Shown piece by piece: positions 1 to 64,000 of a stretch of 64,000 nt of DNA. Each line of letters begins with the position of its first letter. Position 1 is the first letter of the stretch. Position numbers and translations under genes: made by a program. The notes beneath the pieces were generated by a model that saw only the letters and a program-made list of their open reading frames with translations, ran no database searches and was not told the origin of the DNA. Source of the stretch: a virus; IMG/VR virus record IMGVR_UViG_3300042991_000131, positions 12,821-76,820 of that record; one strand, written 5' to 3'.

Positions 1-699
1 ATGACTGGCGCGCCCTATAGCGGGATTACTGTTGAGTTCTTCGCTGTTGACCAGATGAAGACAATTGGTGGCGGTAGCTACCCTTTCCGGATTATCATCG
101 AGGGTAACAACGCTACACTTGAGCAGATTTACACAAAGGTCCAGTACCTGCTTCGTCAGGCCACTGATATTGACGCTGGCGCTGGTACAGTCACTGGTAA
201 GACTGCTGCCGCTATGTTGGAGTTCGTTGGCGATACGCTTAACACTAAGACTGGCGTCTTCATCAACAATATTCAAGCAAACGACATTAATCGCATAGTT
301 CTGAAAGATCAGAACGGTGTCGATCGCACATATCCGTATGTGGCTGCTGGTACTCTGAGCTTTAATGCTTCGCTAATCGGTGCAGGTTCTAGCTATCGCC
401 TGATGTTCACAGCGCCTCCTGGTGCTGGCAATGATTACGGCGAAGCTGGTGCTATCACTGTGAATGATGGTAGCGGTACGCCGATCACTGGTACGATTAG
501 TGCAGCCTCGATAGGCTTCACCTTCGACTACGACGGTAACGTTCAAGGTGGCTTCACTGCTGGCACTGATCGTCCTGTCACCTTGATCGGTATCCGCCCC
601 GGTTACGGTAAGTTCGCTGTCGCAACCGGCACACTGTCCCGCTCAAAGGGCATAAGCCTCTCGCTTGTTGCTGAGCAGGACCGCGCGTATGCGGCCTAA
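1..699 (+). CDS. Putative virion structural protein, probably 5'-truncated by window edge
   Basis: Gly/Thr/Ala-rich beta-type ORF at start of the tightly packed virion operon. Confidence 0.55.
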   Translation: MTGAPYSGITVEFFAVDQMKTIGGGSYPFRIIIEGNNATLEQIYTKVQYLLRQATDIDAGAGTVTGKTAAAMLEFVGDTLNTKTGVFINNIQANDINRIVLKDQNGVDRTYPYVAAGTLSFNASLIGAGSSYRLMFTAPPGAGNDYGEAGAITVNDGSGTPITGTISAASIGFTFDYDGNVQGGFTAGTDRPVTLIGIRPGYGKFAVATGTLSRSKGISLSLVAEQDRAYAA

Positions 700-701
700 T
701 C

Positions 702-1325
702 ATGATAACATTCGACGGGCCGAACAAGATCATCGAGCTTGACGGTACGTTGCGAGTGTCAATTAGAGGCATCTACAGCCGCTGGGTTGATTGGATGGCT
801 CAAAGTGACAATCTCAAATACCTTCCAGCTTTCTCAGTAATCGCTGACCCGCCTAAGATCCCCGTATATGCCACGCTAGAAAATGGCTGGCGTATACGTC
901 CCTTAGGCCAAGCAACACCATACGTCTTAACACTGTTTGATGGCTTCTTAGCCACAGCAGAAGAGACGGATCCGCTACTTTTCGTGTCTAGTGGAGCTAA
1001 TCCGCGTGTGGTACTTGAGTCACCAGTCATAGCCGTTGGCTTTGAAATGGGCGGCACATCACTAACGCCAGAAGATATCTGGACGCATGAACCCAGGACG
1101 CTGACTGGTGGAGGCGGCGCTGGACCTAGCGGTGTGATCCACGTAATTGGAGACACTATTATCGTCAGCGACGAAACTGCTGCAACGATTAGTGAACTCA
1201 GTGATAGCGAAATGACAGTACAGAGTCCTGATTACAGTGTTGCCTCTGATCCAGATGCTAACATTCAGTTACCTGATGATTCCTCAACTGCCACAGTGGA
1301 GCCGGACTCCACGATAGGAACGTAA
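702..1325 (+). CDS. Hypothetical virion-associated protein
   Basis: Abuts neighbours in structural operon; acidic C-terminus. Confidence 0.5.
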   Translation: MITFDGPNKIIELDGTLRVSIRGIYSRWVDWMAQSDNLKYLPAFSVIADPPKIPVYATLENGWRIRPLGQATPYVLTLFDGFLATAEETDPLLFVSSGANPRVVLESPVIAVGFEMGGTSLTPEDIWTHEPRTLTGGGGAGPSGVIHVIGDTIIVSDETAATISELSDSEMTVQSPDYSVASDPDANIQLPDDSSTATVEPDSTIGT

Positions 1326-1678
1326 TGCCTACCATCTACTCCGGTGACACTTGGCCGTTCACCGCAACACTCAAAGTTGGCGTCGTAATCTTTCCTGTAG
1401 CCGGTGCCACACCTGGCCCGGCAGATACAGTTACTGCTAAGTTCATTGATAGCAAGACGTCTGTGCCGATTACGAATGATATCACATGCTTGGAAGCCAC
1501 TCCTGGCGCAGATTGGCTCAACGGCAAGGTTGCTATCGCGCCTTCTGACGTCGAAAGCATTAAGCTAGAGCCTTTCGTCGGTAAGCCTGTTCTGCTAGTT
1601 ATCCAAGTGCAGCGTACTGGTTATGGCAAGAAAGAGTGGCAGACTTCCTACACAATTAAGAAGGGCTGGATAGCCTAA
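1325..1678 (+). CDS. Hypothetical structural protein (BppU/Ig-like beta fold possible)
   Basis: TAATG stop/start coupling; GDT..F...L pattern. Confidence 0.4.
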   Translation: MPTIYSGDTWPFTATLKVGVVIFPVAGATPGPADTVTAKFIDSKTSVPITNDITCLEATPGADWLNGKVAIAPSDVESIKLEPFVGKPVLLVIQVQRTGYGKKEWQTSYTIKKGWIA

Positions 1679-2121
1679 TGGCATATATCGACGCGTCAGG
1701 TGGCGATGCCTATATGGCTACACGCGTCGGTAGCGATGCGTGGGATGAGGCCGAGACAGCCGACAAGGATAAGGCACTTGGCCATGCTACTCGGATTATT
1801 GATAACCTGAACTATCTTGGTATGAAGGCTGTGGCCGATCAGGAGAATGCTTTCCCTCGCCATGGTCAGACTGATGTGCCTAGCGATGTGTTAAATGCTT
1901 GCTGTGAGATTGCTCTAGCGTTACTTGATGGTGTTAATCCGGAACTAGAACTTGAAAACCTGAGTCAAGTTGCCTCAGGGTATGCCAACGTCAAAACTAC
2001 CTTCAATCGTGACTCGCTACCGGAACACATCCTGGCAGGTGTTCCATCTTCGACAGCTTGGCGCTATCTTAAGCCCTGGTTGCAAGATAATCGTAGCGTG
2101 AACATGATAAGGGTGTCCTAA
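1678..2121 (+). CDS. Head-tail connector (DnaT-like phage family)
   Basis: Y...DAY..R....W......K.KAL..ATR.ID...Y.G......Q...FPR motif. Confidence 0.7.
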   Translation: MAYIDASGGDAYMATRVGSDAWDEAETADKDKALGHATRIIDNLNYLGMKAVADQENAFPRHGQTDVPSDVLNACCEIALALLDGVNPELELENLSQVASGYANVKTTFNRDSLPEHILAGVPSSTAWRYLKPWLQDNRSVNMIRVS

Positions 2122-2131
2122 GGACAAACAG

Positions 2132-2923
2132 ATGCGTCTCAATATCATTTCTACTCTACTGCTACTCGCCTATGAAGGTGAGGAAACGCCCGAAGCGAAG
2201 GCTGCTGCCGAAGCTGCCCGAAAGGCCGCCGAAGATGAAAAGAATGGTAAGAAGTTCTCTCAGGAAGATGTGAACAAGATCGTTGCTGAAGAGAAGCGCA
2301 AGACACAGGCTGCACAGGCCAAGCTCGTCACTGAGCTTGAAGCCATGCGGAATAAGGCTAATCTCACCGCCAGCGAGCGCGAAGAGATTGAGCAGCGTCT
2401 TGAGAGCGTCAAGTCTGAGTTCATGACGAAGGAGGAACTTCTCAAGCAAGAGAAGGCCAAGAGCGAGAAGAAGCTCAAGGAAGAACTGGATACTAAGTCG
2501 AAGGAAGCCGAGAACTGGCGCGGCCGGTTCACTCAGTCCACTATCACGCGTTCGATTACTGATGCGGCCGTCGCTTCGGATGCTTTCAGCCCGAAGCAGA
2601 TTGTTGCTCAGTTAGCACCAAATACTCGCCTTGTCGATGTGCTTGGCGAGGACAACAAACCTACTGGTGAGTTCGTGGCAAAGGTGAAAATCACCGTGAA
2701 GGACAAGGACAGTAAAGACGTTACTCTCGACCTTCCGGTCGACGAGGCAGTGAAGAAGATGAGTGAGCAGGACGAGTTCGCTAATCTGTTCAAGGGTAAG
2801 GGCACCGGCGGTACTGGCGGTCAGAACCGTGGCGGTGGCAAGACCCCTGATTTAGTTACAGCGGCTCAGGGCGACCCTGCAACATATCGTCGTCTTCGCA
2901 AAGAAGGTAAGATCAGTCTCTAA
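2132..2923 (+). CDS. Capsid scaffolding protein
   Basis: Charged coiled coil, FSQEDVNKIV motif, Gly-rich C-terminus, directly upstream of capsid gene. Confidence 0.8.
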   Translation: MRLNIISTLLLLAYEGEETPEAKAAAEAARKAAEDEKNGKKFSQEDVNKIVAEEKRKTQAAQAKLVTELEAMRNKANLTASEREEIEQRLESVKSEFMTKEELLKQEKAKSEKKLKEELDTKSKEAENWRGRFTQSTITRSITDAAVASDAFSPKQIVAQLAPNTRLVDVLGEDNKPTGEFVAKVKITVKDKDSKDVTLDLPVDEAVKKMSEQDEFANLFKGKGTGGTGGQNRGGGKTPDLVTAAQGDPATYRRLRKEGKISL

Positions 2924-2975
2924 TCACCTGTGCCACGAAGCATAGCTTCTGTCACACTCCCAAGGAAATCTACAA

Positions 2976-4331
2976 GTGCGTACTCTCAATCTGATCCCCA
3001 CAATCATCCTGCTGGCCTACGCGAACGACAATGATGCGTTCGTTCCCGAGGTCTGGGCGCAGGAATCCCTGATGATCCTAGAGAATAACATGGTTGCGAC
3101 CAATCTGGTCCACCGTGACTTCTCGAATCAGATCGCTTCGTTTGGTGATGTGGTCAACACCCGCAAGCCCGGCACCTTCACTGCTACACGCAAGGGTAAC
3201 AATGATGATGTGACCGATCAGGATGCAAGCGCGACCAACGTGCCGGTGCCTCTCGATCAGCACCTGCACACCAGTTTCGTCATCAAGGATGGCGAGGAAT
3301 CGAAGAGCATGAAGTCGCTGGTTGAGGAGTACCTCAAGCCGGCTGCTATCTCGCTCGCCGAGGCTGCCGACCAGATCGTTCTCGGTCAGGTCTACAAGTT
3401 CCTGGGCAACGCGGTCGGTAAGCTCGGCACAACGATCACCAAGGATGTGGTCATCGCTGCGCGTGAGAAGATGAACGCGAACAAGGTTCCGCTCCAGGGC
3501 CGCAACTTCCTGATCAGCCCGAACATGGAAGGTGCCCTGCTTGGCATCGCTGATTTCGTCAACGCTGAGAAGGTTGGCGATGATGGCACTGCTCTCCGCG
3601 AAGGTTCGGTCGGCCGCAAGTTCGGCTTCGATACCTACATGGCTCAGCAGGTTCCGTCGATCGTTGGTGCTGCTCAGTCTGCTAGCGTCACTACGACCTC
3701 GGGCTACGCCGCCGGTGTTAGCACTGTTGCTTGCACCACGACCACAACTGCTCTGACAGTTGGTACGTGGGTCACAATCGACGGTCAGCCGTACCAGATC
3801 GCTGCCGGCACAACCGCGACCTCGTTGGTCCTGGCTAGCCCGCTGCGTCAGGCTATCCTGACTGCCTCTGTGGTTGTTCCGTACGCTGCCTCCCTGATCA
3901 ATCAGGTCGGTGGCTACGTTGCTGGTTGGTACAAGGCGATGAACTACGACACAGTGACACCGATCAAGGTCGGTCAGCTGATTTCGTCCGGTGCCGGTAT
4001 CTACTCGGCCATCGGCGGCACGGATGCGACCAAGCTCGTGCTTGATCGCCCCCTGGCTGCGACTGCCGCCGATGATGCCGTCCTGGGTCGCGGCCCGAAC
4101 GGTGAGTATGGCTTCGCGTTCCACCGGAATGCGCTGGCCTTCGTCACCCGCCCGCTTGCCCAGCCCCGCGCTGGCATGGGCGCTCTGTCGTCCGTCGCGT
4201 CGTACAATGGTCTCGGCCTGCGCGTGACCATGACCTACGACGGCAAGGCTCAGGGCACACGTGTGACCCTCGACATGCTGGCTGGTGTCAAGGAACTGGA
4301 TCTGGCTCTCGGCTGCCCGGTCCTTGGCTAA
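2976..4331 (+). CDS. Major capsid protein (P22 coat-like HK97 fold with insertion domain)
   Basis: FVPEVWA, GDVVN.RKP, GRKFGFD.Y, FAFHRNALAFVTRPL, D.L.GVK motifs; GTG start with AAGGA RBS; C/T-ending codons. Confidence 0.88.
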   Translation: MRTLNLIPTIILLAYANDNDAFVPEVWAQESLMILENNMVATNLVHRDFSNQIASFGDVVNTRKPGTFTATRKGNNDDVTDQDASATNVPVPLDQHLHTSFVIKDGEESKSMKSLVEEYLKPAAISLAEAADQIVLGQVYKFLGNAVGKLGTTITKDVVIAAREKMNANKVPLQGRNFLISPNMEGALLGIADFVNAEKVGDDGTALREGSVGRKFGFDTYMAQQVPSIVGAAQSASVTTTSGYAAGVSTVACTTTTTALTVGTWVTIDGQPYQIAAGTTATSLVLASPLRQAILTASVVVPYAASLINQVGGYVAGWYKAMNYDTVTPIKVGQLISSGAGIYSAIGGTDATKLVLDRPLAATAADDAVLGRGPNGEYGFAFHRNALAFVTRPLAQPRAGMGALSSVASYNGLGLRVTMTYDGKAQGTRVTLDMLAGVKELDLALGCPVLG

Positions 4332-4340
4332 TTAGGTAAA

Positions 4341-4380
4341 ACTAGTGCCTGTGCAGGAGTAATCCTGCACAGGCATTGGT
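4341..4380 (+). terminator. 18-bp stem-loop after capsid gene (attenuator or stabiliser; no U tract)
   Basis: ACTAGTGCCTGTGCAGGA-GTAA-TCCTGCACAGGCATTGGT. Confidence 0.6.
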
Positions 4381-4388
4381 CCTAAGCC

Positions 4389-13232: not shown

Positions 13233-14246
13233 ATGGCTATCCCATTCCGCGCAAATGTTGACTTCAACAAGAATGAACTCCAGAATGCCCGTGTTCAGAA
13301 CCTGGCCAGCGATCCAGGTACGCCGGTCGCAGGCCAGTTATACTTCAACAGCACCGGCGGCGTGCTGGTAATCAAGTTCTACACGGGATCAACGTGGATC
13401 ACACTTGGGCGCCTTGACCAGATCAGTGCCCCGACTAGCGACGTTAGCTTCAACAGCCAGAAGGCGACCAACCTAGCCACGCCGACCGCCGGCACTGATG
13501 GCGCCAATAAGGACTACGTTGACAGCGTGGCCCAGGGCCTGGACATCAAGGCGAGTGTGCGAGCGGCGACTACTGTCGCTGGTACATTAGCATCGTCATT
13601 CATTGCCGGTGCATCCATAGATGGCGTGACGCTGGTGCTTGGCGACCGTATCTTGCTTAAGAATCAAGCAGCCCAGGCAGAAAATGGTATCCGCGTCGTC
13701 ACAGCCGGTACACCGACACGTGCCACTGACTTCGATGCCTGGACTGAGGTTCCTGGTGCATTCGTGTTCGTCGAAGAGGGCACAGCTAATGCTGATACTG
13801 GCTGGGTATGCAGTGCAAATGCCGGCGGTACACTTGACACGACTGCGATTACCTTTGTTCAGTTCAGCGCAGCTGGTATAGTCACTGCCTCTGGCGGTTT
13901 GACAAAAACTGGCAACGATATTGCCATGACCAATATGGTGCAAGCCACAGTTAAGGGTCGTGCTGCCGGCGCCGGTACAGGGGCACCAACTGATTTGACC
14001 GTAGCGCAGTTACTTACAATGCTTGGGATGGTTGCGCCTTTTGCACAGACACTGTCAACTAGTGCTACGTCATATGTAATCACGCACAGCAAGGGGACGA
14101 AGGATCTGATCGTCCAGGTATACGATGTCGCGAATAGCCCATATCAACAAGTGTTCTGTGATGTTGAGTATACTGATACAAATAACGTGACATTACGTTT
14201 TGCCGTTGCACCAACTGCTAACCAATACCGAGTTATAATCAAGTGA
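13233..14246 (+). CDS. Tail fibre protein
   Basis: NLATPT...DGANKDYVD and DRILLKNQ....ENG fibre motifs. Confidence 0.75.
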   Translation: MAIPFRANVDFNKNELQNARVQNLASDPGTPVAGQLYFNSTGGVLVIKFYTGSTWITLGRLDQISAPTSDVSFNSQKATNLATPTAGTDGANKDYVDSVAQGLDIKASVRAATTVAGTLASSFIAGASIDGVTLVLGDRILLKNQAAQAENGIRVVTAGTPTRATDFDAWTEVPGAFVFVEEGTANADTGWVCSANAGGTLDTTAITFVQFSAAGIVTASGGLTKTGNDIAMTNMVQATVKGRAAGAGTGAPTDLTVAQLLTMLGMVAPFAQTLSTSATSYVITHSKGTKDLIVQVYDVANSPYQQVFCDVEYTDTNNVTLRFAVAPTANQYRVIIK

Positions 14247-16333
14247 GCCTAAAGCTAAAAAATGGCTTCAATGCCATCGCCAAGGCTACGGCCGGGGCTC
14301 CGACCACGGGCACGTGGGCGGTTGGCGATGTCGTGTGTGATAGTGTAGGTGAATATTTCCGTTGCACCGTAGCGGGCACGCCGGGCACCTGGAGCAGTCT
14401 AGGTAGTGTTGCTCTAGCAGCTGACCGCGAGGTCAGCACGACTAAGCCGCCGGCATCCAGCGACTCGCGCCTGCGGAATCCGTTCACGATCAACTACATC
14501 AAGAACCCGGACTCGGAAGCCGACACGAACCCGGCGCACGTTGGCTGGGTCGAGTACGCCGACGCGGCGGGCACGCAGCCGGTGAACGGGACCGGCGGCT
14601 CGCCTGTCTCCGCTCTGACGGGCGCGTATTCCGACACCGCGTTGCGCGGCAGCAAGACATTCCATTTCATCAAGGTCACAGGGGCCAGCCGCCAGGGCGA
14701 GGGCTTCAGCTACGACTTCACCATCGACGGAGCCGACAAGAACCGCTCCCTCACCGTCGCGTTCGAGTGCCTGCTTCTCGGCGCTGGCTACACCGCAGGC
14801 GACATGTCGGTGTGGGTGTACGATGTCACGAACAGCCGCCTCTGCCCAATCAGCGCCAACAGCATCGCCGGTCCGGGGCGATTCTCGGCGCAGTTCAGCA
14901 CCAGCGACAGCACCAGCTATCGCCTGTGCATGCATGTGAGCAGCACGTTCACCGGCGAATGGCAGATGCGGTTCGATGACTTCTACGTAGGACCGACCTA
15001 CCTCCCCAGCGCACCGGCAATGAGCGACTGGCAGGACGGCGGCGCGGTCACGATTGAAGCGACCACGACGAACCCGACGAAGGGGACCGTGCTGCGCGAT
15101 AAGGTCTGGTGGCGTCGTGTGGGGGATTCCGCGGAGATTCGTTTTGAGTACGAGCAGAGCACTGGCGGTTCGGCTGGCAGCGGGGACTATCTATGGGGGC
15201 TGCCCGCCGGCCTGAGCATTGATCTGGCGAAGGTCCAGAACCAAAATGGAACCGCCACCGCGAATCAACGGGGGCAGCCGGCTGTTGGCGTTGCCAGTTA
15301 CGCAGATGGCGCTGTCGGCATGCTCGTCGGGTCCGTCGCGCCGTATGACGCGACGCGCGTTCGGCTTGCCGTGCTGTACAGCGGTGCGAATAACTTCATC
15401 AATTCGGCTATATGCGATCTCAACAACGCCAACTCAAAATGGTCTGCGACGTTCACGGTCCCCATCTCCGGATGGTCCGGCACCACCGCCGTCCAGCCCG
15501 GCAGCCGCTACCTGTGGGCGCAGCGGTTCGCAGCGAATGCGGTGCGCGTCACGTCAGCGCCGAGCAAGCCGGGGGAATATCGGGCGCAGCGTAGCGGCGT
15601 GGACACCGCTCCGACAACCGCTCCGACCGCTGCGGACGGAGCGCGCATCGACAGCAATACCCCCGCCGGGCGCATCAATAGATACTATTTCTACGTTGGC
15701 CCTGGGAAAGTCGTTCAGCCGGTTTGGTACCAGACTACCGGGCGCAGCGGGAACATTATCGCGGAGGTATTCTACGTCTCTGCGTGGCGAGGCATCGGAT
15801 GGACATACGACCCGGCAACCGGCGTTGTCACCGTCCTCTGCGGAAGTGGCGCGTCCGACCTTGTCGGGATCGGTGACGATCTATCCACGACCTATTCCAC
15901 CGGCTATTTCGACATCCTTATTGCCGACGATCCGGTCCCCGTGGCCCTGGCCCCGGCGGTGTATGTCGAGGCGAGTAGTGATGCGGGGCAGGTCCTGACG
16001 GCGAACGTGAGCGACATCCAGTTCGAGGACAAAGTCATCGACACGCACGGCGCGTGGAGTGGAACGGTGTTCACGGCTCCTGTTGCTGGCATATATGATT
16101 TCTATGGAGCCTTCTACTCGAACGGGGCAGGCGTCTACATCGTGCTGTGGTACAACGGGAACAACGCAGAGCTGATCGGGTACATCCGCGACAACTTGAC
16201 GCTGGGCCTGTTCCACGGACGGCGGAAGATGGCCGCAGGTGATACCATCAAGTTTCGGTCCAACACCAACTGCACTAGGGATAACTCAGGGACCACCAAC
16301 TGGCTCCGCATCACCCGCATCGGAGACGCCTAA
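14243..16333 (+). CDS. Receptor-binding tail fibre (C1q/TNF-like C-terminus)
   Basis: Beta-rich; FTAPVAGIY.F C-terminal motif; GC-rich composition unlike flanks. Confidence 0.7.
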   Translation: MSLKLKNGFNAIAKATAGAPTTGTWAVGDVVCDSVGEYFRCTVAGTPGTWSSLGSVALAADREVSTTKPPASSDSRLRNPFTINYIKNPDSEADTNPAHVGWVEYADAAGTQPVNGTGGSPVSALTGAYSDTALRGSKTFHFIKVTGASRQGEGFSYDFTIDGADKNRSLTVAFECLLLGAGYTAGDMSVWVYDVTNSRLCPISANSIAGPGRFSAQFSTSDSTSYRLCMHVSSTFTGEWQMRFDDFYVGPTYLPSAPAMSDWQDGGAVTIEATTTNPTKGTVLRDKVWWRRVGDSAEIRFEYEQSTGGSAGSGDYLWGLPAGLSIDLAKVQNQNGTATANQRGQPAVGVASYADGAVGMLVGSVAPYDATRVRLAVLYSGANNFINSAICDLNNANSKWSATFTVPISGWSGTTAVQPGSRYLWAQRFAANAVRVTSAPSKPGEYRAQRSGVDTAPTTAPTAADGARIDSNTPAGRINRYYFYVGPGKVVQPVWYQTTGRSGNIIAEVFYVSAWRGIGWTYDPATGVVTVLCGSGASDLVGIGDDLSTTYSTGYFDILIADDPVPVALAPAVYVEASSDAGQVLTANVSDIQFEDKVIDTHGAWSGTVFTAPVAGIYDFYGAFYSNGAGVYIVLWYNGNNAELIGYIRDNLTLGLFHGRRKMAAGDTIKFRSNTNCTRDNSGTTNWLRITRIGDA

Positions 16334-16860
16334 TGCTGCTCTGCAAAGTGCACAATCTGGTCACCGACCAGCGGTACGAGTTCCAGGCTGCCGACCAAGC
16401 CGAGATCGACGCTCGCCTGCTCCGCAAGGCGGCGACCTACGGGCGCGATGCGTGGACCGAGACGATCCCGGCTTGGACGCAGACCGGCGTTTGGTCAACC
16501 GACGAGCCGCCCGTGTTCGATCCCGAGGCGACCCTGGTGTGGCCTGAGCAGGTGATCGACCACCCGAGCGAGCGCACCGTCGAGGTAGTCGACCTTGCGC
16601 CGCAGGAGCAGGCTGCTGCCAAGCAAGCTGTAATCATGTTGATACAGGTGCGCTTAGACACGCTCGCACAGTCCTGGGGCTATGATGATATTAAGAGTGG
16701 TTGCACGTATGCAGGTGATCCGTATGCACGGTTCAATGCAGAAGGTACGGCTATGCGTAACTGGCGTTCAGCCACGTGGGCAGCAGTCGACCAGCATCAA
16801 GATGCTACAAGTGTTGAAGAGTTGTTCACTTTCTTACCGCCTATACCGGAGAGACCATGA
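16333..16860 (+). CDS. Tail fibre assembly chaperone
   Basis: LD..AQ.WGYDDI.S..TY.......AEG.A...WRSA.W motif following fibre. Confidence 0.65.
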   Translation: MLLCKVHNLVTDQRYEFQAADQAEIDARLLRKAATYGRDAWTETIPAWTQTGVWSTDEPPVFDPEATLVWPEQVIDHPSERTVEVVDLAPQEQAAAKQAVIMLIQVRLDTLAQSWGYDDIKSGCTYAGDPYARFNAEGTAMRNWRSATWAAVDQHQDATSVEELFTFLPPIPERP

Positions 16861-24107: not shown

Positions 24108-24149
24108 AGAGGCCCAGGCAGGATTATCCTGCCTGGGCCTCTCTGTTTT
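24108..24149. terminator. Terminator between convergent operons, probably bidirectional
   Basis: AGAGGCCCAGGCAGGA-TTA-TCCTGCCTGGGCCTCT, 16-bp stem. Confidence 0.75.
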
Positions 24150-24835
24150 CAGAATAGTCCGCCAGCCTTCAGTAGTCGCTTGTAGACTTCAGCAGTCTTC
24201 AAGCAATCGGCTAGCGCATCGTGAGCCTTGTCTCCGCCAATCCCGAGCGTGGTAGCTAGGTACTGCAAGTTAACCTTCGGGAAGGGTACCTTCTCAGCAC
24301 GCATACCAGCGCGGTCATTCATGAACAGTGCGCTATTCATCGTATCACGATAGTGATAATGGAAATATTGATTGTACTGCTCAACACCGAGCCAGGCTTG
24401 AATAAAAGCCTTGTCGAAGCTGTAGTTCTGACCAAGCGGCATAATCTTGTTGCCATTGCCATACTTGTTGTTCTTGATGCCAAGCTTCTTGAACCAAGCC
24501 TCAAACATATCGGCAGCCTTATCGCGGTCGAAGCCGGTGTTCATGATGTTGGCCATGTCGAGCTTGTTAATCTCGATGGCCTTAGCATCTACGCGCTCGG
24601 GATAGTTGGGCTTCAAGTTCACATAGAAGGGCATCATGCCCTTTAGCGGATTGAAGTTGCTATCAAGGGCTATGACACAAATCTGCACAATCTCGTGGAA
24701 GTTCGGATCCAGACCAGTTGTCTCAGTATCCATGACACAACACATGTTGTTGTTGAAATGTACCATAGCGTAATTGCCTGGATCGAAAGGCTCATTAGCT
24801 ACTTCCTTGTCCAGATTAGTAATAGTATCTGCCAT
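24149..24835 (-). CDS. DEDDh 3'-5' exonuclease (DnaQ-like)
   Basis: DTETTGL, N.SFD, HDALAD motifs. Confidence 0.85.
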   Translation of the reverse strand: MADTITNLDKEVANEPFDPGNYAMVHFNNNMCCVMDTETTGLDPNFHEIVQICVIALDSNFNPLKGMMPFYVNLKPNYPERVDAKAIEINKLDMANIMNTGFDRDKAADMFEAWFKKLGIKNNKYGNGNKIMPLGQNYSFDKAFIQAWLGVEQYNQYFHYHYRDTMNSALFMNDRAGMRAEKVPFPKVNLQYLATTLGIGGDKAHDALADCLKTAEVYKRLLKAGGLF

Positions 24836-25619: not shown

Positions 25620-25779
25620 TGAGCGCCCTTTCAAGAGCTTGTTGGAGTTCAGCGGGATCATACTCTATAGGCATAACGCCGGCATTGACACTTATATGTA
25701 TATCGTATATCTGGTCACGAAAGATGTAGCCCTTGGCTTCCTTCGTACTGTGCTGGACGAACATTCTTTCAATGAGCAT
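25600..25779 (-). CDS. Hypothetical protein
   Basis: ATG at 25779 with AAGGA RBS. Confidence 0.45.
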   Translation of the reverse strand: MLIERMFVQHSTKEAKGYIFRDQIYDIHISVNAGVMPIEYDPAELQQALERALNEYVKR

Positions 25780-26644
25780 TGCTTTCCTTAATCCAGAGTT
25801 TCTCGGTGGCATCACCACGATTAGTGTCACCGTGGCTCTTGTTGTTCTCGTCAGTGAAGGCTAACGCCTTGGCTGTCGATCTAACATCCCAATGGAATAC
25901 CTTATCCCAGGGCTGCTTGTCGTACAGTGGATTAGGATATCCGCTGATAGCGACGAAGCCCTTGAGCGTAAATATCGTCTCGATGAGCTTCGTATGTTGC
26001 TCAATGCTCATTTCATATTCATACGTGCCGCGGAATGCATCTACATACGGCGGATCAAGGTAGAACACAGTATCGACGCTATCATAGTCGCGCAGTATAT
26101 TGCTCCAGTCAGCGTTCTCTATTTGGACTTGCTTGAACCGATCATGAATCTCAGGAAGCGACCTAAGACCATTCCTAATCTTTCCAGCAAGACTACCGTC
26201 ACCGCCAGTAGAACGACCCCAATTACGACCAAGACTACCAAAGGAATAATTAACCATAGCGAACCAACGTCCAGCCCTTTCAACAGGATCCTTCTGATCT
26301 TGCCACGTATCCCGGTTTGCCAGGAACTCTTCCCGGCTATGTAGAGTATTGTCCAACCAAGCACAGAGACGATCAAAGAGAACGCGATCACGCATGCAAC
26401 GATAGAAATCAGTAACGCCTGAATGTCGATCATTGAATACCTCTAGCTTGCTTTTGGGCCGATTAAGCGTGATAACTGCACTGCCACCGAATACCTCTAC
26501 CCAAACCTTGCGTACAGGCAGGTGCTCCATGATGTATTTCACGGAGCGGCTTTTACCACCTGGATAACTGAATGGTGCTTTGACGATTGTTTCGCGCTTC
26601 TCGGACTGTTCACTCTGTGCATCGAGGCTATCGAAAAGCGTCAT
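25769..26644 (-). CDS. DNA N6-adenine methyltransferase (Dam/D12 class)
   Basis: YPGGKS, EVFGGS, FYLDPPY motifs. Confidence 0.9.
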   Translation of the reverse strand: MTLFDSLDAQSEQSEKRETIVKAPFSYPGGKSRSVKYIMEHLPVRKVWVEVFGGSAVITLNRPKSKLEVFNDRHSGVTDFYRCMRDRVLFDRLCAWLDNTLHSREEFLANRDTWQDQKDPVERAGRWFAMVNYSFGSLGRNWGRSTGGDGSLAGKIRNGLRSLPEIHDRFKQVQIENADWSNILRDYDSVDTVFYLDPPYVDAFRGTYEYEMSIEQHTKLIETIFTLKGFVAISGYPNPLYDKQPWDKVFHWDVRSTAKALAFTDENNKSHGDTNRGDATEKLWIKESNAH

Positions 26645-27392: not shown

Positions 27393-27580
27393 GGTTTCTC
27401 TCCGTAAGCGTAAAGCCCTTCACGGGCGGTTGTGGTGACTTCAGCAGGGATATTGACACCAACCCAATAATGCTTACCTTTGTACTCTACATCGAACTTG
27501 GCCGTGTACTCATTCTCGAAGGCATCGCGCATCTGGAGATACTCATCTGGCATCAGGGATTCGAGTAGTTCACTAATCAT
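27389..27580 (-). CDS. Hypothetical protein
   Basis: Overlapping stop/start coupling. Confidence 0.5.
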   Translation of the reverse strand: MISELLESLMPDEYLQMRDAFENEYTAKFDVEYKGKHYWVGVNIPAEVTTTAREGLYAYGEKP

Positions 27581-30264
27581 GACACTAGATCCAGGAAGGT
27601 ATCAATCAACGTCCAGATTTTACCCTCTTCAACAACCTGTGGCTGAGCCTTGAACTCGATGTTACCAATGTAGAATTGATTATCCTTACGGCTACGACCC
27701 TTCGGGAAGTGATGCGGTAACTCTTTGCCTACACGTATCTTCGACCAGCGGCTAACCTGATTCGGGTCACACTTCTCAAGGAACCTATCGTAGAGGTCGC
27801 TGAACTTGAGCGTGGCTCCTGGCTTCTTAATCGTATACTCATCGAGGAACACTTCAAGCTCATTTCTGTTCAAGCTCTGGGCAAGCAGCTTATCTTCAGT
27901 TTCGATGGCCGGAATATTGAGGCGATCATTAGAAGCAGGTAGCTCTAGATTCAATACCTCAGCTAGAAAGTCAGGTGCCTCCTTCTCCAGCAGCACAGTT
28001 ATTTGCTTCCTAGGGATTAGATCCGCAACAGGGATCCGCTCCACATGGATCATAACGATACGAGTATCTTCCCCAAATATGGGACAGGACTGATAATCGT
28101 TAGAGCATTGTACCCAGTGGGTCGTATTCGGGACTTGGTAGGGCGTGCCGCCCTTAGGATGAATAAGAAGCTCACGCCCAGTGACCCAATCTTTAATCCT
28201 ATTATATGCCACCTTATTATTCTTGAGGTCGATTTCTTCGACCGAACAAAGGATAGCTCCATGAAGCTCATCATTGAATCCTTGCTGTGATGTTAGAGCA
28301 GCTTCTGCCTTCTGGCATCCTTTAGTCAGGAGAAGCTGTATACTCTCCCAGAAACTACTCTTACCAGTGTTCTGTTCCTTGCTGTGGAAGAATAGATATG
28401 GCAGCGGTTGGCCAGGCTCTCGCAGCATGCTGGCGATCCAGCATTTCAGGTAGTCTGCGCCGGTGAGTATACCGTTACTCTTGCACCAGGGATTTTTCTT
28501 AACTGCCTCGTTAAGTCCCTTGCCACAGTGATTGAGAATCTTTTGCCATGTTGGGTACTGGAGATTATCTGTATCTTGTGTTGGTGTGAACCGAAACTGA
28601 GCAGCGTTCCTGTTCCATTCGCGGTCGCCGGGATACTCAGACTGGAAAGGCTTATTCACAATCCGCCATGGACGTAGAACAGCACCACCAACTACACCAG
28701 TGACCTCTTCACCTTTGAGGCCAGTCGATGCCAGTGCCTTGAGTACGTGACTCAGAGGCTCAGCACACCATTCGATATCAGACTTGATTACCCAACCAGC
28801 ATCCTCGCCGCCACTAACAAGGTGCCGTGTCATATCGTCATAGTTACCAACTTCAACCTCAGTCTTAGCAGTTGTCTGCGTGTTGTAGAGTCGGATCCAC
28901 TTATCCTTCTCAGGTAACCAGCCAGGCATTTCCTCTGCCTTATCGCTATCCTTACGCTCGACCGTGACCTGTAATCTTCCGTCTTTGTGATGCTTGAGCT
29001 TTGTCTCGCGTGTCGAGTAATGGCTTGTTAGATTAAGATGCACACCAAGTAGAGCAGCAGCCTTCATGGCCGTCTCAGACTCTCTGAAATTGAACGCTCC
29101 CTTTGTATCTTCTAATCCACCAAACGATTTGGCGGCCGTTGGTAGGTCTGCCTCGCGATTCAGATAGCACCGAGTCCAGCCACTAGAATCTTGCGTCCAC
29201 GACTCATGTTCCTGCACACCCATACCGAAACGGCGTACAGACCATGAGCCACGACGTTGTGGATATGCAAAAACGTTCTGGCCATTAAGATCCTTACCTT
29301 GAGATGATGTATCGAACACGCCTTTAAGCCCAAGGTCTGTGTGAGCTTTTTTGAGCCATACAGTATGTGTAACAAGCATATGATTATCTTGATCCCACCA
29401 CCACATTGCATCGTTGGTCTTAAGATACTCGATCAGCTTCTTATGCTCATCATCCAGAGGAATCTTAGGTTGCTTACCAGTAAGCTCCTCGAAAACATCA
29501 GTCTGACCAGCAGACTCAATATCTTGTGGCAGATTCTTGCGACGGGTGCCGCTAATCACCTTAACGTGATCTTTCCAGTTAGCTGGAACATCCGTCAGTA
29601 CACAACCCTGCTTAATCATTGTCAGGCCATCTGTACCAACCATCTTACGTGCCCATACCCACATATTACCGCCACAAGTGTCTACTTTAGACACATAATC
29701 GTAGCCTGTCAACGCAGATAGCTTACCTAGGATAGCACGTGCAAGAGCAGCATGCTCCGTGTGCGTATTCGTAGGTACTTCATCTAGCAGTACATATAGG
29801 TGTAGACCCTTACCAGCGGTAGACTTGCGTACTGTGACCCAATCAACATTCATTGCAGCTTGCTTAACCTTCTCAAGTTCCTCGTTGCTTAGCTTCTTCG
29901 TATGTTTGTCACTGTGACCAGTAATCGCATCAAAGTCAAAAGCTACCCAGCGAGAAACCTTGTTGAACCAATCCCAGCCAGTCATACCGATAGCTTCGGC
30001 ATGAGCGGCCAGATCGTACTTCATGTCTGAGTCTTTGTACTCAGGCTCAGTATTAGCCTTGTACGGAATACGGAAAGGCTTCCAAGTGGTAGCTCCGTCC
30101 GACCATCCCTGCCAACGCTTGCCCTTGAACTCACCCTCTATACGCTCACCGCCATCTTGTGCGACGTTAATCTGCACTTCCATGTTGTGATTATAGAGCT
30201 TTGCCAGGTCTTCACGCGTCACAGCGTGAAGGAACCTGCTAATCGCTTCAGTCTTTGTCGGCAC
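27577..30264 (-). CDS. Primase-helicase (AEP-like N-terminus plus SF3-type ATPase)
   Basis: DFD and STAGKGLHLY primase motifs; QNTGKS Walker A, VEE, SN motifs. Confidence 0.75.
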   Translation of the reverse strand: MPTKTEAISRFLHAVTREDLAKLYNHNMEVQINVAQDGGERIEGEFKGKRWQGWSDGATTWKPFRIPYKANTEPEYKDSDMKYDLAAHAEAIGMTGWDWFNKVSRWVAFDFDAITGHSDKHTKKLSNEELEKVKQAAMNVDWVTVRKSTAGKGLHLYVLLDEVPTNTHTEHAALARAILGKLSALTGYDYVSKVDTCGGNMWVWARKMVGTDGLTMIKQGCVLTDVPANWKDHVKVISGTRRKNLPQDIESAGQTDVFEELTGKQPKIPLDDEHKKLIEYLKTNDAMWWWDQDNHMLVTHTVWLKKAHTDLGLKGVFDTSSQGKDLNGQNVFAYPQRRGSWSVRRFGMGVQEHESWTQDSSGWTRCYLNREADLPTAAKSFGGLEDTKGAFNFRESETAMKAAALLGVHLNLTSHYSTRETKLKHHKDGRLQVTVERKDSDKAEEMPGWLPEKDKWIRLYNTQTTAKTEVEVGNYDDMTRHLVSGGEDAGWVIKSDIEWCAEPLSHVLKALASTGLKGEEVTGVVGGAVLRPWRIVNKPFQSEYPGDREWNRNAAQFRFTPTQDTDNLQYPTWQKILNHCGKGLNEAVKKNPWCKSNGILTGADYLKCWIASMLREPGQPLPYLFFHSKEQNTGKSSFWESIQLLLTKGCQKAEAALTSQQGFNDELHGAILCSVEEIDLKNNKVAYNRIKDWVTGRELLIHPKGGTPYQVPNTTHWVQCSNDYQSCPIFGEDTRIVMIHVERIPVADLIPRKQITVLLEKEAPDFLAEVLNLELPASNDRLNIPAIETEDKLLAQSLNRNELEVFLDEYTIKKPGATLKFSDLYDRFLEKCDPNQVSRWSKIRVGKELPHHFPKGRSRKDNQFYIGNIEFKAQPQVVEEGKIWTLIDTFLDLVS

Positions 30265-30306: not shown

Positions 30307-30337
30307 TTGATTTGATTACAACGTGTAATCAAATCAA
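30307..30337. promoter_or_regulatory. 14-bp inverted repeat, putative operator
   Basis: TTGATTTGATTACA-ACG-TGTAATCAAATCAA. Confidence 0.6.
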
Positions 30338-30956: not shown

Positions 30957-31136
30957 ATTGACAGACACTCGAAAAGACGCTAATTTCGAGTTACGAGTAA
31001 CTCATAAATCAACCGATTATTGAGGTACTCATAATTCGTTAATCATTCCGATTGACGAATTGAACTGCTAATCATCCTTACCATGTGGATGATTAGTTAA
31101 CCTATTCTAGTGCTGCGCAGCACAAGGAGAACACAC

Positions 31137-32096
31137 GTGGGTGATATCAAGAAGATTAGCTTAGCCCTCATTCGTGAGAACGAGGTTGCTCTGCGTACCG
31201 TCAACCGTGAGTCCGAGGATTACCTGGGCCTGGTTGAGTCGATCCGCCAGAAGGGCTTCATGGGCGCGATTACCGTCCGTGCGAAGGTCGATGCCGAGAC
31301 GAAGGAGCATTTCTACGAGCTAATCGACGGCCTCCATCGCTTCAACGCGTCGAAGGACGCGGGGCTGTCGGAGATTAACGTCGATGTGGTGGATCTGAAT
31401 GAGGACCAGGTTCTCGAAGCTCAGATCATGACGAACATCCACAAGGTGGAGACCCGTCCGGTCGAGTATTCGCAGCAGCTCAAGCGCATCCTGACCCGCA
31501 ATCCGCTGATGACCGAGAGCGAGCTGGCTGTCAAGCTCGGCAAGTCGCCGGTCTGGATTAAGGAGCGTCTGGGCCTGACCAAGATCACCAACAGCGAGAT
31601 TACTGCCCTCATCAACGATGGCAAGATCAAGCTGGCCAACGCCTACGCTCTGGCCAAGCTGCCCGAGACCGAGCAGCAGGACTTCGTTGAGCGTGCGATG
31701 ACCCTCAGCCCGGACGAGTTCGTTCCGGCTGTCCAGGCTCGCGTCAAGGAGATTAACGAAGCCAAGCGTCAGGGCAAGGAAGCCGGCGCCGCCGAGTTCG
31801 TCCCGACCCCGCACCTCCAGAAGCTCAGCGACCTCAAGGCGCTGCTGGAAAACCGTACCGCTGCTGCCAAGCTCGTCGCGGGCGTGTCGGATCCGGTCGA
31901 GGCTGCCATCATCGCGATTAAGTGGGCGCTCCACCTTGACGCCGACAGCGTTGCCGCTGCCAAGGCCAAGGATGATGCCCGCCGCGCCGAGCAGGCCGAG
32001 GCGAAGAAGAAGCGCGATCAGGCGAAGCTGGAGAAGGCTGCCGCCGCCGCGAAGGATGCCGCTGAGAAGGCCGCCGCTGCCGCGAAGCAGGGCTAA
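31137..32096 (+). CDS. ParB/Spo0J-like protein 1
   Basis: LVESIRQKG...ITVR...YELIDGLHRF..., HTH TESELAVKLGKS..WIKERL; GTG start with AAGGAG RBS; Ala/Lys-rich tail. Confidence 0.85.
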   Translation: MGDIKKISLALIRENEVALRTVNRESEDYLGLVESIRQKGFMGAITVRAKVDAETKEHFYELIDGLHRFNASKDAGLSEINVDVVDLNEDQVLEAQIMTNIHKVETRPVEYSQQLKRILTRNPLMTESELAVKLGKSPVWIKERLGLTKITNSEITALINDGKIKLANAYALAKLPETEQQDFVERAMTLSPDEFVPAVQARVKEINEAKRQGKEAGAAEFVPTPHLQKLSDLKALLENRTAAAKLVAGVSDPVEAAIIAIKWALHLDADSVAAAKAKDDARRAEQAEAKKKRDQAKLEKAAAAAKDAAEKAAAAAKQG

Positions 32097-36396: not shown

Positions 36397-37254
36397 ATGG
36401 CTCTTGCATCGACTGTATTAGAAATCCCGATTAGCGAAATATTGATTGACGAGGACTTCAACTGTCGTGGGCAGATTGCGCCTATTGACGTTGTTGATCT
36501 TGCCAAAGATATCGAACGTCAGGGATTAATTCAACCTGTCACAGTGATGGCGGTTGAAGGATTACCAGACGGTAAGAAGTACAAGCTTCTTGCTGGTTTC
36601 CGGCGCTGCAAGGCTCATATTGTTCTGAAGAAGCCGACAATCTCAGCCGTCATACGTCTGGACAAGCTGACCGACGCTGACGCTCGGGTGATTAACCTAG
36701 CTGAGAACCTGCATCGCAAAGACTTAAATGTTCTCCAGGAGGCCAAAGCGATTAGGCATTTGTTCATCTTCTTTGGAGAAGCTGAAGTTGCCAATCGTCT
36801 CGGTCAGTCTCGCGGCTGGGTCCAGATACGTGCCATGCTTCTCAAGCTGCCCGAAGTCGTGCAGAAGGAAGTTGAAGCTGGCATGATTAGCCACACGAAC
36901 ATTCGTGAGCTATATGCGATCCATCGCGCTGGCAACATGGACAATCTCTACGCTGCTGTCCGCAAGATTAAGGACGGTAAGCTCAAAGGCTTGAAGAAGG
37001 TGACAGTTAATCCTGCCATCATCGGCCAAGAGGCTACTGGTAAGTTATTAAGGAATAAGAAAGAAATGGAGGCCATGACAATGTTCCTAGTCGATAGAAA
37101 GTGTAAGGGCCTGCATACTCGATTACTGGCATGGGCAGCTGGAAACGTATCGACAGAAAATATCGTTACTGATATTTCAGCTTGGGCCGATGATCAGGGC
37201 ATCGAGTTCGTTCAACCTACAAAAGAAGAATTAGAGGCAATATGCGCGCGGTGA
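36397..37254 (+). CDS. ParB/Spo0J-like protein 2
   Basis: GLIQPVTV, LLAGFRR, ENLHRKDLN..QEA, HTH. Confidence 0.88.
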   Translation: MALASTVLEIPISEILIDEDFNCRGQIAPIDVVDLAKDIERQGLIQPVTVMAVEGLPDGKKYKLLAGFRRCKAHIVLKKPTISAVIRLDKLTDADARVINLAENLHRKDLNVLQEAKAIRHLFIFFGEAEVANRLGQSRGWVQIRAMLLKLPEVVQKEVEAGMISHTNIRELYAIHRAGNMDNLYAAVRKIKDGKLKGLKKVTVNPAIIGQEATGKLLRNKKEMEAMTMFLVDRKCKGLHTRLLAWAAGNVSTENIVTDISAWADDQGIEFVQPTKEELEAICAR

Positions 37255-39031: not shown

Positions 39032-39403
39032 TTGGTTCAAGAAAGGACCATCATCGTGCCAAAGCATTTTACCGCTGAAATGACTCGTGAGACTGCCGAA
39101 GCAATCGGCGCTAACACGAATCACTGTGTTACCGGCTACTACTTCTTCCGCTTCCTGGAAGGGATTAAGGTCGGCGAGACCTTGGTCCCGCTCAAGGTTG
39201 CGCTGACTGGTGAGTTCGCTCAGAAGATGGGCGTCGAAGGCAAGATCATCACGGTCAAGCCCACTGGTTTCTTCGACGAGGAAGGCGTGCGCATCGACGA
39301 CATCTGGACGATTAATCTAGTTCTCGGCGAGACGAACTTCAAGTTCGGTGTGCGCTTCAAGTGGGAAGTGACGCCCGACAAGCAGAAGATGTTCGTGAAC
39401 TAA
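39032..39403 (+). CDS. Hypothetical protein
   Basis: Strong codon bias; start uncertain. Confidence 0.55.
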   Translation: MVQERTIIVPKHFTAEMTRETAEAIGANTNHCVTGYYFFRFLEGIKVGETLVPLKVALTGEFAQKMGVEGKIITVKPTGFFDEEGVRIDDIWTINLVLGETNFKFGVRFKWEVTPDKQKMFVN

Positions 39404-50222: not shown

Positions 50223-50233
50223 AAGGAACCCTT

Positions 50234-50434: not shown

Positions 50435-50437
50435 GCC

Positions 50438-50702: not shown

Positions 50703-50722
50703 AAAGCCGAAAGGGCTTACCC

Positions 50723-51073: not shown

Positions 51074-51122
51074 TCACGAGAAGCCAGGCATCGTAGTGGT
51101 GCCTGGCTTCAAGTGTCAACCC
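51071..51122 (+). repeat. Early-region intergenic hairpin element, copy 3
   Basis: TAATCACGA-[GAAGCCAGGCATC/GGTGCCTGGCTTC]-AAGTGTCAACCC. Confidence 0.75.
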
Positions 51123-57828: not shown

Positions 57829-57922
57829 TGGACCTACTCGTGCCATTAGGTGGCGTGTTCTACAAGGCAGGCCCTGTCACCGTGTACATGCAGGCGCTGG
57901 TCCTGTACGTGGGGATAGACCT

Positions 57923-62739: not shown

Positions 62740-63129
62740 GTGACACGTGTGGACAGACCTATGAATGATGCAATAGGCTGGTCTGATGCAGAATATCTTT
62801 CAAGGAAGATGGGTGAGCTACAGCCGAAGCTGCTTCGCTATGTAGTCGGACGTTCTGGCGATGATTACATGCTTAGGGTTGAGCTATTGGATCTGAAAGT
62901 CCTCGTTGAAGGCGTCTTGGCTAAGACAGTACGTGCTGATAATCACATGCCTGGGCGTGTCATCTATCCGGAGAGGACTTGGTCAACTGGCCCTGTACCG
63001 GGTGACACCGACGTAATCATCCAGACAGAAGAGGGCCGGTGCCACGTGGCTAGGTTCGTCGGGCAGCCGGGTCATTGGGAGGTCGGTGGATTCGCCATTG
63101 AAGGTGTCGTTGCCTGGAGGCCGTTATGA
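62740..63129 (+). CDS. Hypothetical protein (DUF551-like C-terminus)
   Basis: W....P.....V......VVAWRPL. Confidence 0.45.
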   Translation: MTRVDRPMNDAIGWSDAEYLSRKMGELQPKLLRYVVGRSGDDYMLRVELLDLKVLVEGVLAKTVRADNHMPGRVIYPERTWSTGPVPGDTDVIIQTEEGRCHVARFVGQPGHWEVGGFAIEGVVAWRPL

Positions 63130-63353
63130 TGCCTAAATACATCATGATTGGCGAGAATACAGCCGTGCGTCTCTACGAGTCGAAGGGTGAGCATCTAGCC
63201 CGTTATGAACGTGTACATGGTGCCTGGATGATTAACGTGCTGCGCCAGGGTGAGAAACTAGTAGCTTGCCACGAGTGGCCGTTCCCTGAGAATATTGTTG
63301 AGCAGCCTGTGCGTGAGATTACACAAGCAGAATATCAGGAGAATGACGCATGA
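63126..63353 (+). CDS. Hypothetical protein
   Basis: ATGA coupling. Confidence 0.5.
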   Translation: MMPKYIMIGENTAVRLYESKGEHLARYERVHGAWMINVLRQGEKLVACHEWPFPENIVEQPVREITQAEYQENDA

Positions 63354-63553
63354 GCCTACTCTGCACTGACTGCCAGACTGATGTGTATAAGATTCGTGAG
63401 TATGCCTACATCTTGAAGAAATGGTCCTTTGGGAAAGCTGTTCTCTGCCTTGAGGCCAGGCTAGGCAGGCCATTGACTCGCTCCGATTTCAACTTCGAGA
63501 TTCCGTTGACATCATTGCCATTTGCACGACTCACCAAAAGGATGCAATCATGA
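63350..63553 (+). CDS. Hypothetical protein
   Basis: C.DC, LE.RLGR.LT.SDF. Confidence 0.45.
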   Translation: MSLLCTDCQTDVYKIREYAYILKKWSFGKAVLCLEARLGRPLTRSDFNFEIPLTSLPFARLTKRMQS

Positions 63554-63771
63554 GCCTACGCGACGAGATTAGGGATGCCATTGCACGCGGCGAGACTTCG
63601 ATCAACTATTTCGGCAAGAGTGTCACATTTCAGCGCAACAGGGCCATTTACTCCGTCAACAAGACAGCTAATCTCTGGTATAGTAGATACTATCCTGAAC
63701 CTAGATTCATGTGCCCATCAGTTGATTCACATCGTAGCTTTACTAAGGCAGAACTTCAATGCATATCTTGA
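63550..63771 (+). CDS. Hypothetical protein
   Basis: ATGA coupling. Confidence 0.45.
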   Translation: MSLRDEIRDAIARGETSINYFGKSVTFQRNRAIYSVNKTANLWYSRYYPEPRFMCPSVDSHRSFTKAELQCIS

Positions 63772-63811
63772 TACTTAATCACATGCAGGAAAACCTCGTC
63801 AAGGATTCACA

Positions 63812-64000
63812 ATGAAACGTAAGCCTACCTATCTCTCTAACTCTGCCCTTAAGACCTGGGAAAGCGACAGGCGCGAGTACTATCTACGCTACCTGACAGA
63901 ACGTGTACCCAAGGTGCAACAGACCGCGCCGATGGCCATTGGTTCGGCATTTGATGGTATGGTCAAGAACGCGATTGAAAAGATGCTGGGCCTCGATGTA
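63812..64000 (+). CDS. PD-(D/E)XK exonuclease-like protein, 3'-truncated by window edge
   Basis: YLSNSALKTW...EYYLRY...MAIGSAFD N-terminal motif; AAGGA RBS. Confidence 0.55.
   Translation, partial: MKRKPTYLSNSALKTWESDRREYYLRYLTERVPKVQQTAPMAIGSAFDGMVKNAIEKMLGLDV

Follow-up and report, generated by a model that had tools for sequence, protein, structure and literature searches.

The stretch of DNA described here, hereafter called the window, comprises 64,000 nucleotides of a phage genome (IMG/VR record IMGVR_UViG_3300042991_000131) and corresponds to bases 12821-76820 of a contig of 76,820 bp, the ends of which overlap and which has a GC content of 48.8%. The gene content includes a lambda-type GpA terminase, a siphovirus-like structural module and a large replication and nucleotide module; the latter encodes a D5-like primase-helicase, a Dam-family methylase, a DnaQ-like exonuclease, two ParB-like proteins, an SNF2 helicase, a dCMP deaminase, a ThyX with an intein, PolA and a ligase. 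Six HNH genes are located within the window. Here we present an analysis of two anomalies in the text of this genome, the over-representation of the pentanucleotide GATTA/TAATC and the almost complete absence of GTTTA/TAAAC, together with the phage-encoded methylase (25769..26644, minus strand) which is proposed as the reader of both words.

The best public-run holder of the phage is a cave metagenome, and a nucleotide search of a phage collection delivered no match to a close relative. Approximately 100 related contigs from independent metagenomes were found by searches with the capsid, the methylase and the primase-helicase, the last of these having 283 hits in IMG/VR. The present genome is referred to as G000, and related genomes and contigs carry G and L numbers. 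G011, the closest complete relative, has a size of 64 kb, originates from another metagenome and shares 68% identity in the methylase and about 51% mean protein identity with G000. Trees of the methylase and the exonuclease are star-like and do not permit independent origins of GATTA enrichment to be counted. Positions refer to the window unless stated otherwise.

Gain of GATTA/TAATC and loss of GTTTA/TAAAC

GATTA/TAATC occurs 428 times in the window (224 GATTA and 204 TAATC), about once per 150 bp, whereas 142 sites are expected from base composition, 128 under a first-order Markov model and 285 under a maximal-order model. The 76.8-kb genome holds 497 sites, approximately 3.3 times the expectation. 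It ranks first among the pentamers by a large distance, with z=26.6 in the first-order model (runner-up 11.9) and z=8.4 in the maximal-order model. The window-wide excess which a preliminary description had noticed from the letters alone is thus borne out, and the regional counts given there (9 sites in 1-1002, 10 in 31137-32098 and 8 in 50000-51100) are exact. All eight 6-mer extensions are equally enriched, therefore the word is exactly 5 bp long; a longer underlying word was rejected, as no extension stands out. A survey of the literature delivered nothing relevant on GATTA with phages, methylomes or primases.

Coding sites number 420, compared with 179±10 in synonymous-codon shuffles (z=24) and 136±11 in codon-order shuffles (z=26), so the enrichment stays after the codon and dinucleotide correction that had been named in the preliminary description as able to overturn it. 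Isoleucine is written as ATT in 70% of cases in G_A context versus 28% elsewhere, leucine as TTA in 55% after xGA versus 13% elsewhere, and asparagine as AAT in 85% in T_C context versus 52% elsewhere, while TC follows one quarter of the TAA stops. The odds ratios for the GATTA-making codon choice are about 5-8 in all contexts, which points to one weak, uniform force. Enrichment is found in every permitted frame and on sense and antisense strands, with a site density of 11 per kb in intergenic versus 6 per kb in coding DNA. Codon or dicodon bias was rejected as the cause, since the excess survives both shuffles, is present on both strands and is stronger between genes. Equality of the strands, enrichment irrespective of frame, the highest density in intergenic DNA and a length of exactly 5 bp place the signal at the DNA level.

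The word occupies 411 of the 1321 positions permitted by the proteins (about 31%), the occupancy being 0.45-0.54 in replication genes and 0.2-0.38 in structural genes. Of the positions permitted in both G000 and G011, G011 carries the word at a fraction of 0.50 if G000 has it too and of 0.30 if not (odds ratio 2.3, p=0.004, at 51% mean protein identity). Gaps between the 497 genome sites are near-Poisson, without a preferred spacing except for overlapping copies in the palindrome GATTAATC; periodic or paired sites were looked for, not found and rejected. Strand polarity along the genome is absent, with 258 versus 239 sites and no switch point, so the orientation bias along the replicon that marks polar motifs of the Chi/KOPS type is not seen. 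Independent, non-polar sites are as expected for a monomeric enzyme acting on double-stranded DNA.

The second anomaly, which had not been caught in the preliminary description, concerns GTTTA/TAAAC, one letter away from GATTA/TAATC. It is absent from the window, with 106 copies expected under the first-order Markov model, 53 under the maximal-order model and 92±8.5 in synonymous shuffles; in the 76,820-bp genome it occurs once, versus 125 and 66 expected under the two Markov models. Codon choices which would create GTTTA are never used (0/65, 0/41, 0/92, 0/71 and 0/21). None of the other one-letter neighbours of GATTA is depleted.

The sole copy in G000 is non-coding and lies outside the window at genome position 2124 (L018:2124), and the sole copy in G011 is located at 33215 (L293:13215). 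Both fall into the same syntenic interval upstream of the terminase genes, between the homologue of the second gene and the homologue of a 354-aa open reading frame (ORF), each about 100-150 bp past iteron-like repeats (TGTCATAATGACA palindromes in G000) and in the same orientation. The chance of a shared syntenic interval is about 3%, and no local sequence conservation was found around the two copies. This last GTTTA may be a used binding site.

Several simple causes of the loss were rejected. A sigma-70 region-4 or extracytoplasmic function (ECF)-like protein is encoded at 57815-58510, with which the phage may redirect the host RNA polymerase; GTTTA as its promoter element was dismissed because of the single genome copy. 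Avoidance of a Cas12a-type TTTV protospacer adjacent motif was dismissed as well, GTTTC and GTTTG being present at normal levels.

A patch-repair drive from GTTTA to GATTA was considered in the light of very-short-patch repair by Dcm/Vsr in Escherichia coli, which raises CCWGG and lowers CTWGG and CTAG. The phage resembles this signature in that a methylase target would be over-represented and a one-letter neighbour under-represented. It differs in that the change would be a T-to-A transversion and in that GTTTA is purged even where a relative has another target; a Vsr-like gene was not found in the phage. The drive was rejected, because the source could give only about 100 sites and because relatives with GATC, GATAC or GATTC lose GTTTA and keep the neighbours of their own words, so that GATTA and GTTTA are not linked by simple conversion.

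Other words are also rare in the window: GAGCTC, CTCGAG, CCCGGG and GGGCCC are absent, AGATCT is found once and CTGCAG twice. CACCTC occurs once versus 28 expected and CATCTC 5 times versus 40 expected, and CAYCTC is depleted in G001, G002 and G011 as well.

Longer words, hairpins and holes

A few longer elements contain the pentamer. The palindrome GATTAATC, in which both orientations of the motif overlap, lies at 39310..39317, with further copies at 45437 and 45947 and three outside the window; the corresponding offset of 3 from GATTA to TAATC is observed 6 times versus 0.8 expected. The 11-mer TGATTTGATTA forms an operator-like inverted pair at 30308..30336 and recurs at 36294, 36368, 49683 and 49880/49896. 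Its seven exact copies, versus 1.25 expected at up to one mismatch, are all intergenic and twice arranged as inverted pairs, and it is likely the operator of some regulator, distinct from the dispersed pentamer. A terminator-like hairpin with the motif as its loop is located at 4349..4372 on the plus strand, and others lie at 24122, 39401 and 50670, in agreement with the earlier remark that the motif caps hairpins at 4360, 24122, 39401 and 50670.

In the preliminary description the word had been taken as a genome-wide mark for a phage protein, either a loading or coating site of a ParB-like protein or the target of the Dam-family methylase at 25769-26644, with self-recognition or genome organisation as the suggested purpose. 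The idea of such a mark fits the present data and the methylase has gained comparative support, but the ParB option has found none. Two proteins with a ParB_N domain and a helix-turn-helix (HTH) are encoded on the plus strand, protein 1 (31110..32096), the gene of which holds ten sites despite 61% GC, and protein 2 (ParB_N with HTH/KorB; 36397..37254); both are unsupported as readers. Their presence, and the position of the TGATTTGATTA pairs and of GATTAATC in leaders, would suit a ParB-like or other HTH protein that loads on or coats the DNA at GATTA. The sites of ParB, KorB and Noc are 13-16 bp palindromes in few copies, and neither protein fits a monomeric 5-bp site. Apart from the six GATTAATC overlaps the 497 sites have no preferred inverted-pair spacing of the parS type. 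Relatives with different motifs retain the recognition helix SRGWVQ[IV]R of protein 2, and the helix of protein 1 varies without a pattern by motif class, so that in neither protein does the helix change with the site. A direct search for relatives of protein 2 in viral contigs found none. We regard a ParB-like reader as very improbable.

In some segments the word is lacking. The region of the capsid gene (2921..4360, plus strand) has no GATTA site at 21 positions at which synonymous changes would allow one, and the tail-fibre block (14236..16631, plus strand, 62% GC) none at 25; the absence reported earlier from 14241-16630 and from the capsid gene at 2976-4331 is confirmed. A third hole, a 2-kb islet outside the window, has 0 sites at 29 possible positions. 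The GC content is not the reason for the holes, because the equally GC-rich gene of ParB-like protein 1 holds its ten sites. The capsid gene is rich in GATC (14 versus 5.6 expected, p=0.002), and its closest relative, from L001 (60% identity), sits in a GATC(A)-enriched contig. Without sites, and in the case of the capsid gene with this GATC richness, the holes resemble recent imports which have not yet acquired the resident signature, and the data fit a recent module swap at the capsid gene.

The Dam-family methylase and the words of the related genomes

The proposed reader of both words is a Dam-family (D12 class) N6-adenine DNA methyltransferase that matches Pfam PF02086 with 65.3 bits (cut-off 22, E=9e-18). 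The catalytic motif D197-P-P-Y200 and the S-adenosylmethionine-binding motif F52-G-G54 are invariant in 11 relatives. The structural model (pLDDT 78), in which the recognition loop has low confidence, best matches the chains 4RTJ, 2G1P and 4RTQ of E. coli Dam (EcoDam; E about 1e-13, TM 0.62-0.76), and the structural matches include EcoDam bound to GTTTA. A profile of the 11 clade methylases aligns to EcoDam with high posterior probability, the hairpin falling on EcoDam 117-128: residues ~137-144 (S-L-G-R-N-W-G-R) correspond to G121-L122-C123-R124-Y125-N126-L127-R128. By profile and model the protein is a bona fide Dam-family enzyme with a predicted Dam fold and recognition hairpin. From EcoDam, the target of which is GATC, it differs in being only about 17% identical and in having no aligned counterpart of the P134 loop region.

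The methylase is a core gene of the clade, and the order primase-helicase, methylase, exonuclease is kept in relatives. The conserved upstream neighbour is the D5-like primase-helicase (27577..30264, minus strand; Pfam DUF5906/Pox_D5), and downstream follows the DnaQ-like 3'-5' exonuclease (24149..24835, minus strand; Pfam RNase_T and synteny). Contigs of related phages from wastewater and sediment runs join across 24838-25359 and 37510-38492, therefore the HNH gene adjacent to the methylase and the LAGLIDADG intein of ThyX are mobile insertions that are absent in relatives.

It is established that Dam-family enzymes read a GAT core (PMC4417163). The non-cognate element of EcoDam was described by Horton et al. 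in 2015 as the 5-bp word GTYTA/TARAC (PMC4417163; PDB 4RTQ, 4RTR), with GTTTA bound equally to or slightly better than GATC. The 5' G of GTYTA is covered by R124, the second pair by L122 and P134, the third by Y119 and the fourth by N120; with the R124A exchange the specificity at the last base of GATC loosens in the direction of GATT and GATG, and among first-position variants AATC is tolerated best (PMC4417163). The pentamer missing from the phage is identical to the EcoDam non-cognate site GTTTA, the chance of such a coincidence being about 1-2 in 512. By analogy, TAATC could be read as an A-A-T-C variant of G-A-T-C (marked adenine in second position) plus one flanking pair, and GTTTA/TAAAC would be the TAATC footprint with one pair inverted.

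The related genomes are enriched for different words. GATTA reaches 477 observed versus 150 expected in G011 and 335 versus 130 in G001; the corresponding values are 710 versus 332 for GATTC in G002, 349 versus 140 for GATTT in G013, 403 versus 159 for AAGAT in G012, 270 versus 114 for TGATT in G015 and 141 versus 57 for GATAC in G007. The hyper-abundant word is TTGAT in G008 and GATC in L042 and L001; for GATC an excess of 2.1 times the expectation was seen among the relatives. A few relatives are enriched for AGCT, ACGT or GTAC; nearly all others carry words with a GAT core. In 8 of 18 clade genomes the first-ranking pentamer contains GAT or ATC, versus 8.6% by chance (p=6e-5), a proportion higher than the 9 of 67 among distant Dam-bearing contigs (p=0.007).

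The recognition hairpin differs along with the word. Among genomes with a strong motif, L-[GS]-R-N is found in all five strongly enriched for GATTA and in none of the 11 with other motifs. V-G-R-N goes with GATAC, Q-G-R-N with GATTT, K-G-R-N and R-G-L-F with GATTC, L-G-A-T with AAGAT, K-S-L-Q with TGATT, K-G-E-F with GATC and K-G-[KQ]-T with AGCT.

Two other readers were weighed against this comparison. The primase-helicase, as the clade-defining neighbour of the methylase, would be a rival reader if the word were its start site, a single-stranded 5'-NNATC-3' enriched to speed lagging-strand priming. The primase of phage T7 reads NNGTC, and five of the variants can be written as NN plus ATC on the complementary strand (TAATC, GAATC, AAATC, GTATC and ATATC). 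Against such a start site speak the words TTGAT, AAGAT and TGATT, which extend on the wrong side, and the 4-bp palindromes GATC, AGCT, ACGT and GTAC in some relatives, which are typical of methylases. Strand polarity is lacking, one site per 300 nt and strand is far above the need for priming, and GTTTA would be left unexplained. A priming signal is thus improbable, with a small chance of being correct.

A host factor, through a Chi-like site for RecBCD/AddAB or the site of a host methylase, would account for motifs that differ between relatives with probably different hosts, and short Chi sites exist, with 5 nt in Bacillus. The variants, however, keep the GAT core over a wide range of GC content, the motif has no orientation bias, and the motif classes differ in a hairpin that is encoded by the phages. 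Enrichment by the host is accordingly hardly to be expected.

The loss of GTTTA follows another pattern. GTTTA is reduced or absent in most relatives irrespective of the enriched word, with 1 observed versus 126 expected in G011, 38 versus 107 in G001 and 0/66, 0/56, 0/52 and 0/72 (observed/expected) in G012-G015. The gain is lineage-specific and the loss is common to the clade. A negative correlation links the strength of the GAT word and the level of GTTTA in the 59 clade genomes compared (rho=-0.35, p=0.007); where the GAT-word z is at least 11, GTTTA is without exception at no more than 0.35 of expectation. The AGCT-enriched relatives, which have a different hairpin, do not show the loss. 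In G003, the one clear case among the relatives without the gene, the methylase is missing at the syntenic slot and neither anomaly is present.

This pattern bears on the possibility of separate causes, in which GATTA is enriched through the methylase or another phage reader and GTTTA is avoided because the hosts of the clade commonly have a defence nuclease, of Type III, IIS or a similar type, that cuts at this asymmetric 5-bp site. An absolute purge has the strength typical of cleavage, and the genome avoids the restriction-type words mentioned above, among them GAGCTC, CTCGAG, CCCGGG and GGGCCC, CTGCAG being left with two copies; the near absence of CACCTC and CATCTC has its parallel in G001 and G002. 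Close relatives differ in their GTTTA level, with values between 0 and 1.1 of expectation, and the level is low in some without a detected methylase. On the other hand, the phages that purge this pentamer span 35-52% GC, a range that implies different hosts; its loss goes together with the enrichment of a GAT word, and the purged word is exactly the Dam non-cognate site. We know of no enzyme with GTTTA as its site, and consider this combination unlikely, at about one chance in five.

In three contigs the methylase slot holds a MazZ-like dATP/dGTP diphosphohydrolase (PF18909; L254:12893-13411, L257:12852-13214 and L280:3018-3557), a hint that relatives with this gene may replace adenine by 2-aminoadenine. 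Such a replacement would fit a role of the slot occupants in DNA modification or anti-defence. A 258-aa ORF in the slot of L256 was ruled out as a methylase by profile comparison. G006 (L197-L200; 70% complete by CheckV, with direct terminal repeats) has CTAG 3 times versus 164 expected and no hyper-abundant GAT word despite the same methylase hairpin as the present phage.

A proposed methylase target and its possible trap

The closest analogue of GATTA in the phage is HIP1, the highly iterated palindrome (GCGATCGC) of cyanobacteria, which together with alternate HIPs has been connected with orphan methylases of GATC and CGATCG specificity (Elhai 2015, PMC4390886; Xu et al. 2018, PMC5861425), and for which biased methyl-directed repair was proposed as the cause (Elhai, PMC4390886). 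Both are short words far above expectation and written into codon choice. The phage word shows the features of a HIP-like word in that its excess survives codon, amino-acid and dinucleotide controls (z=24-26) and that its sites are conserved between diverged genomes (G000 and G011). Alternate HIP words occur in cyanobacterial lineages with alternate methylases; among the strongly enriched phage genomes hairpin and motif agree (5/5 versus 0/11), but many genomes with the same hairpin are unenriched. In contrast to the GC-rich palindromic octamer in cyanobacteria at 15-300 times the expectation, the word of the phage is an asymmetric AT-rich pentamer at about three times, without periodicity. 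The phage purges a single one-letter neighbour, whereas Elhai reports a biased pattern of 1-nt deviants. L034 and L035, viral contigs with a distant Dam-like gene, have the top words ATCGC and CGATC, which fit the HIP1 octamer, and a strong depletion of GATCA; they are probably cyanophage or cyanobacterial contigs.

With EcoDam the phage enzyme shares family, fold and an alignable recognition hairpin, and the purged pentamer is the tight non-cognate site of EcoDam. E. coli is, to our knowledge, not known to purge GTTTA. Restriction-site avoidance in phages (PMC6286503) likewise shows itself in short words that are strongly depleted, and the present phage avoids many palindromes; avoidance leaves the threefold gain unexplained, and the lost word is common to phages of very different GC content.

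We give about an even chance to the explanation that GATTA is the methylase target, accumulated under weak uniform pressure, and that GTTTA is purged as a non-productive trap. The methylase is supported because the words of relatives have a GAT core, including GATC, and differ along with the hairpin, and because GTTTA is a Dam non-cognate site. The enzyme would slide as a monomer along new phage DNA and methylate one adenine per site; by analogy to EcoDam this adenine is probably the central base of 5'-TAATC-3', and the hairpin arginine would be placed on the G:C pair. On GTTTA the enzyme would be retained without turnover, which may slow the marking or block other machines, and the word would be removed for this reason. 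Each added target might bring a small additive gain, or be favoured by methyl-directed biased repair as proposed for HIP1. Targets would thereby accumulate slowly in resident DNA, and imported modules such as the capsid gene and the fibre block would still be without them. Candidate uses of dense adenine methylation are protection from host defences and a mark of self.

A number of observations weigh against this explanation. L-G-R-N is the commonest hairpin of the clade and most of its carriers are without GATTA excess, for example G006 (0.75 of expectation), L227 and L231; therefore the methylase is not sufficient or the hairpin does not fix the specificity. In the GATC-enriched L042, K-G-E stands in place of the L-C-R of EcoDam; a simple hairpin code is thus lacking. 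Distant Dam-bearing phage contigs do not show the GTTTA loss (median 0.97), and GTCTA is not depleted, which sets the phage apart from the EcoDam non-cognate set, of which it is the other word. Some fragments with a methylase-free slot have low GTTTA (0/20 in L280, 0.4-0.5 in L278, L289 and L290), and the contig fragment L256 has GATAT at 4 times the expectation without a detected methylase. The statistics of the clade comparisons ignore kinship, the genomes not being phylogenetically independent. We also know of no reason why more methylase targets should be advantageous.

According to the wider claim, the siphophages of a whole clade, from aquatic, cave and wastewater habitats, have shaped the text of their genomes in co-evolution with a Dam-type methylase of their own, the target of the lineage being packed, the dead-end word erased and one copy kept upstream of the terminase genes. 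We hold it to be possible, with the odds somewhat against it. If true, these phages would provide a counterpart of HIP1, the first natural evidence of a fitness cost of non-cognate Dam binding, and a case in which dense adenine methylation of one strand marks self or shields the DNA. HIP1-like methylase-linked words have been without a function for about 30 years, and in the clade a small and rapidly evolving system is available, the word changing by lineage and the reading loop of the candidate enzyme by motif class, so that cause and effect are directly testable. GTTTA has been known only from crystal and binding studies of EcoDam, and its total purge suggests that non-cognate binding matters in vivo. 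The holes at the capsid gene and the fibre block may serve as an intrinsic clock by which recent exchanges of modules among phage genomes can be followed.

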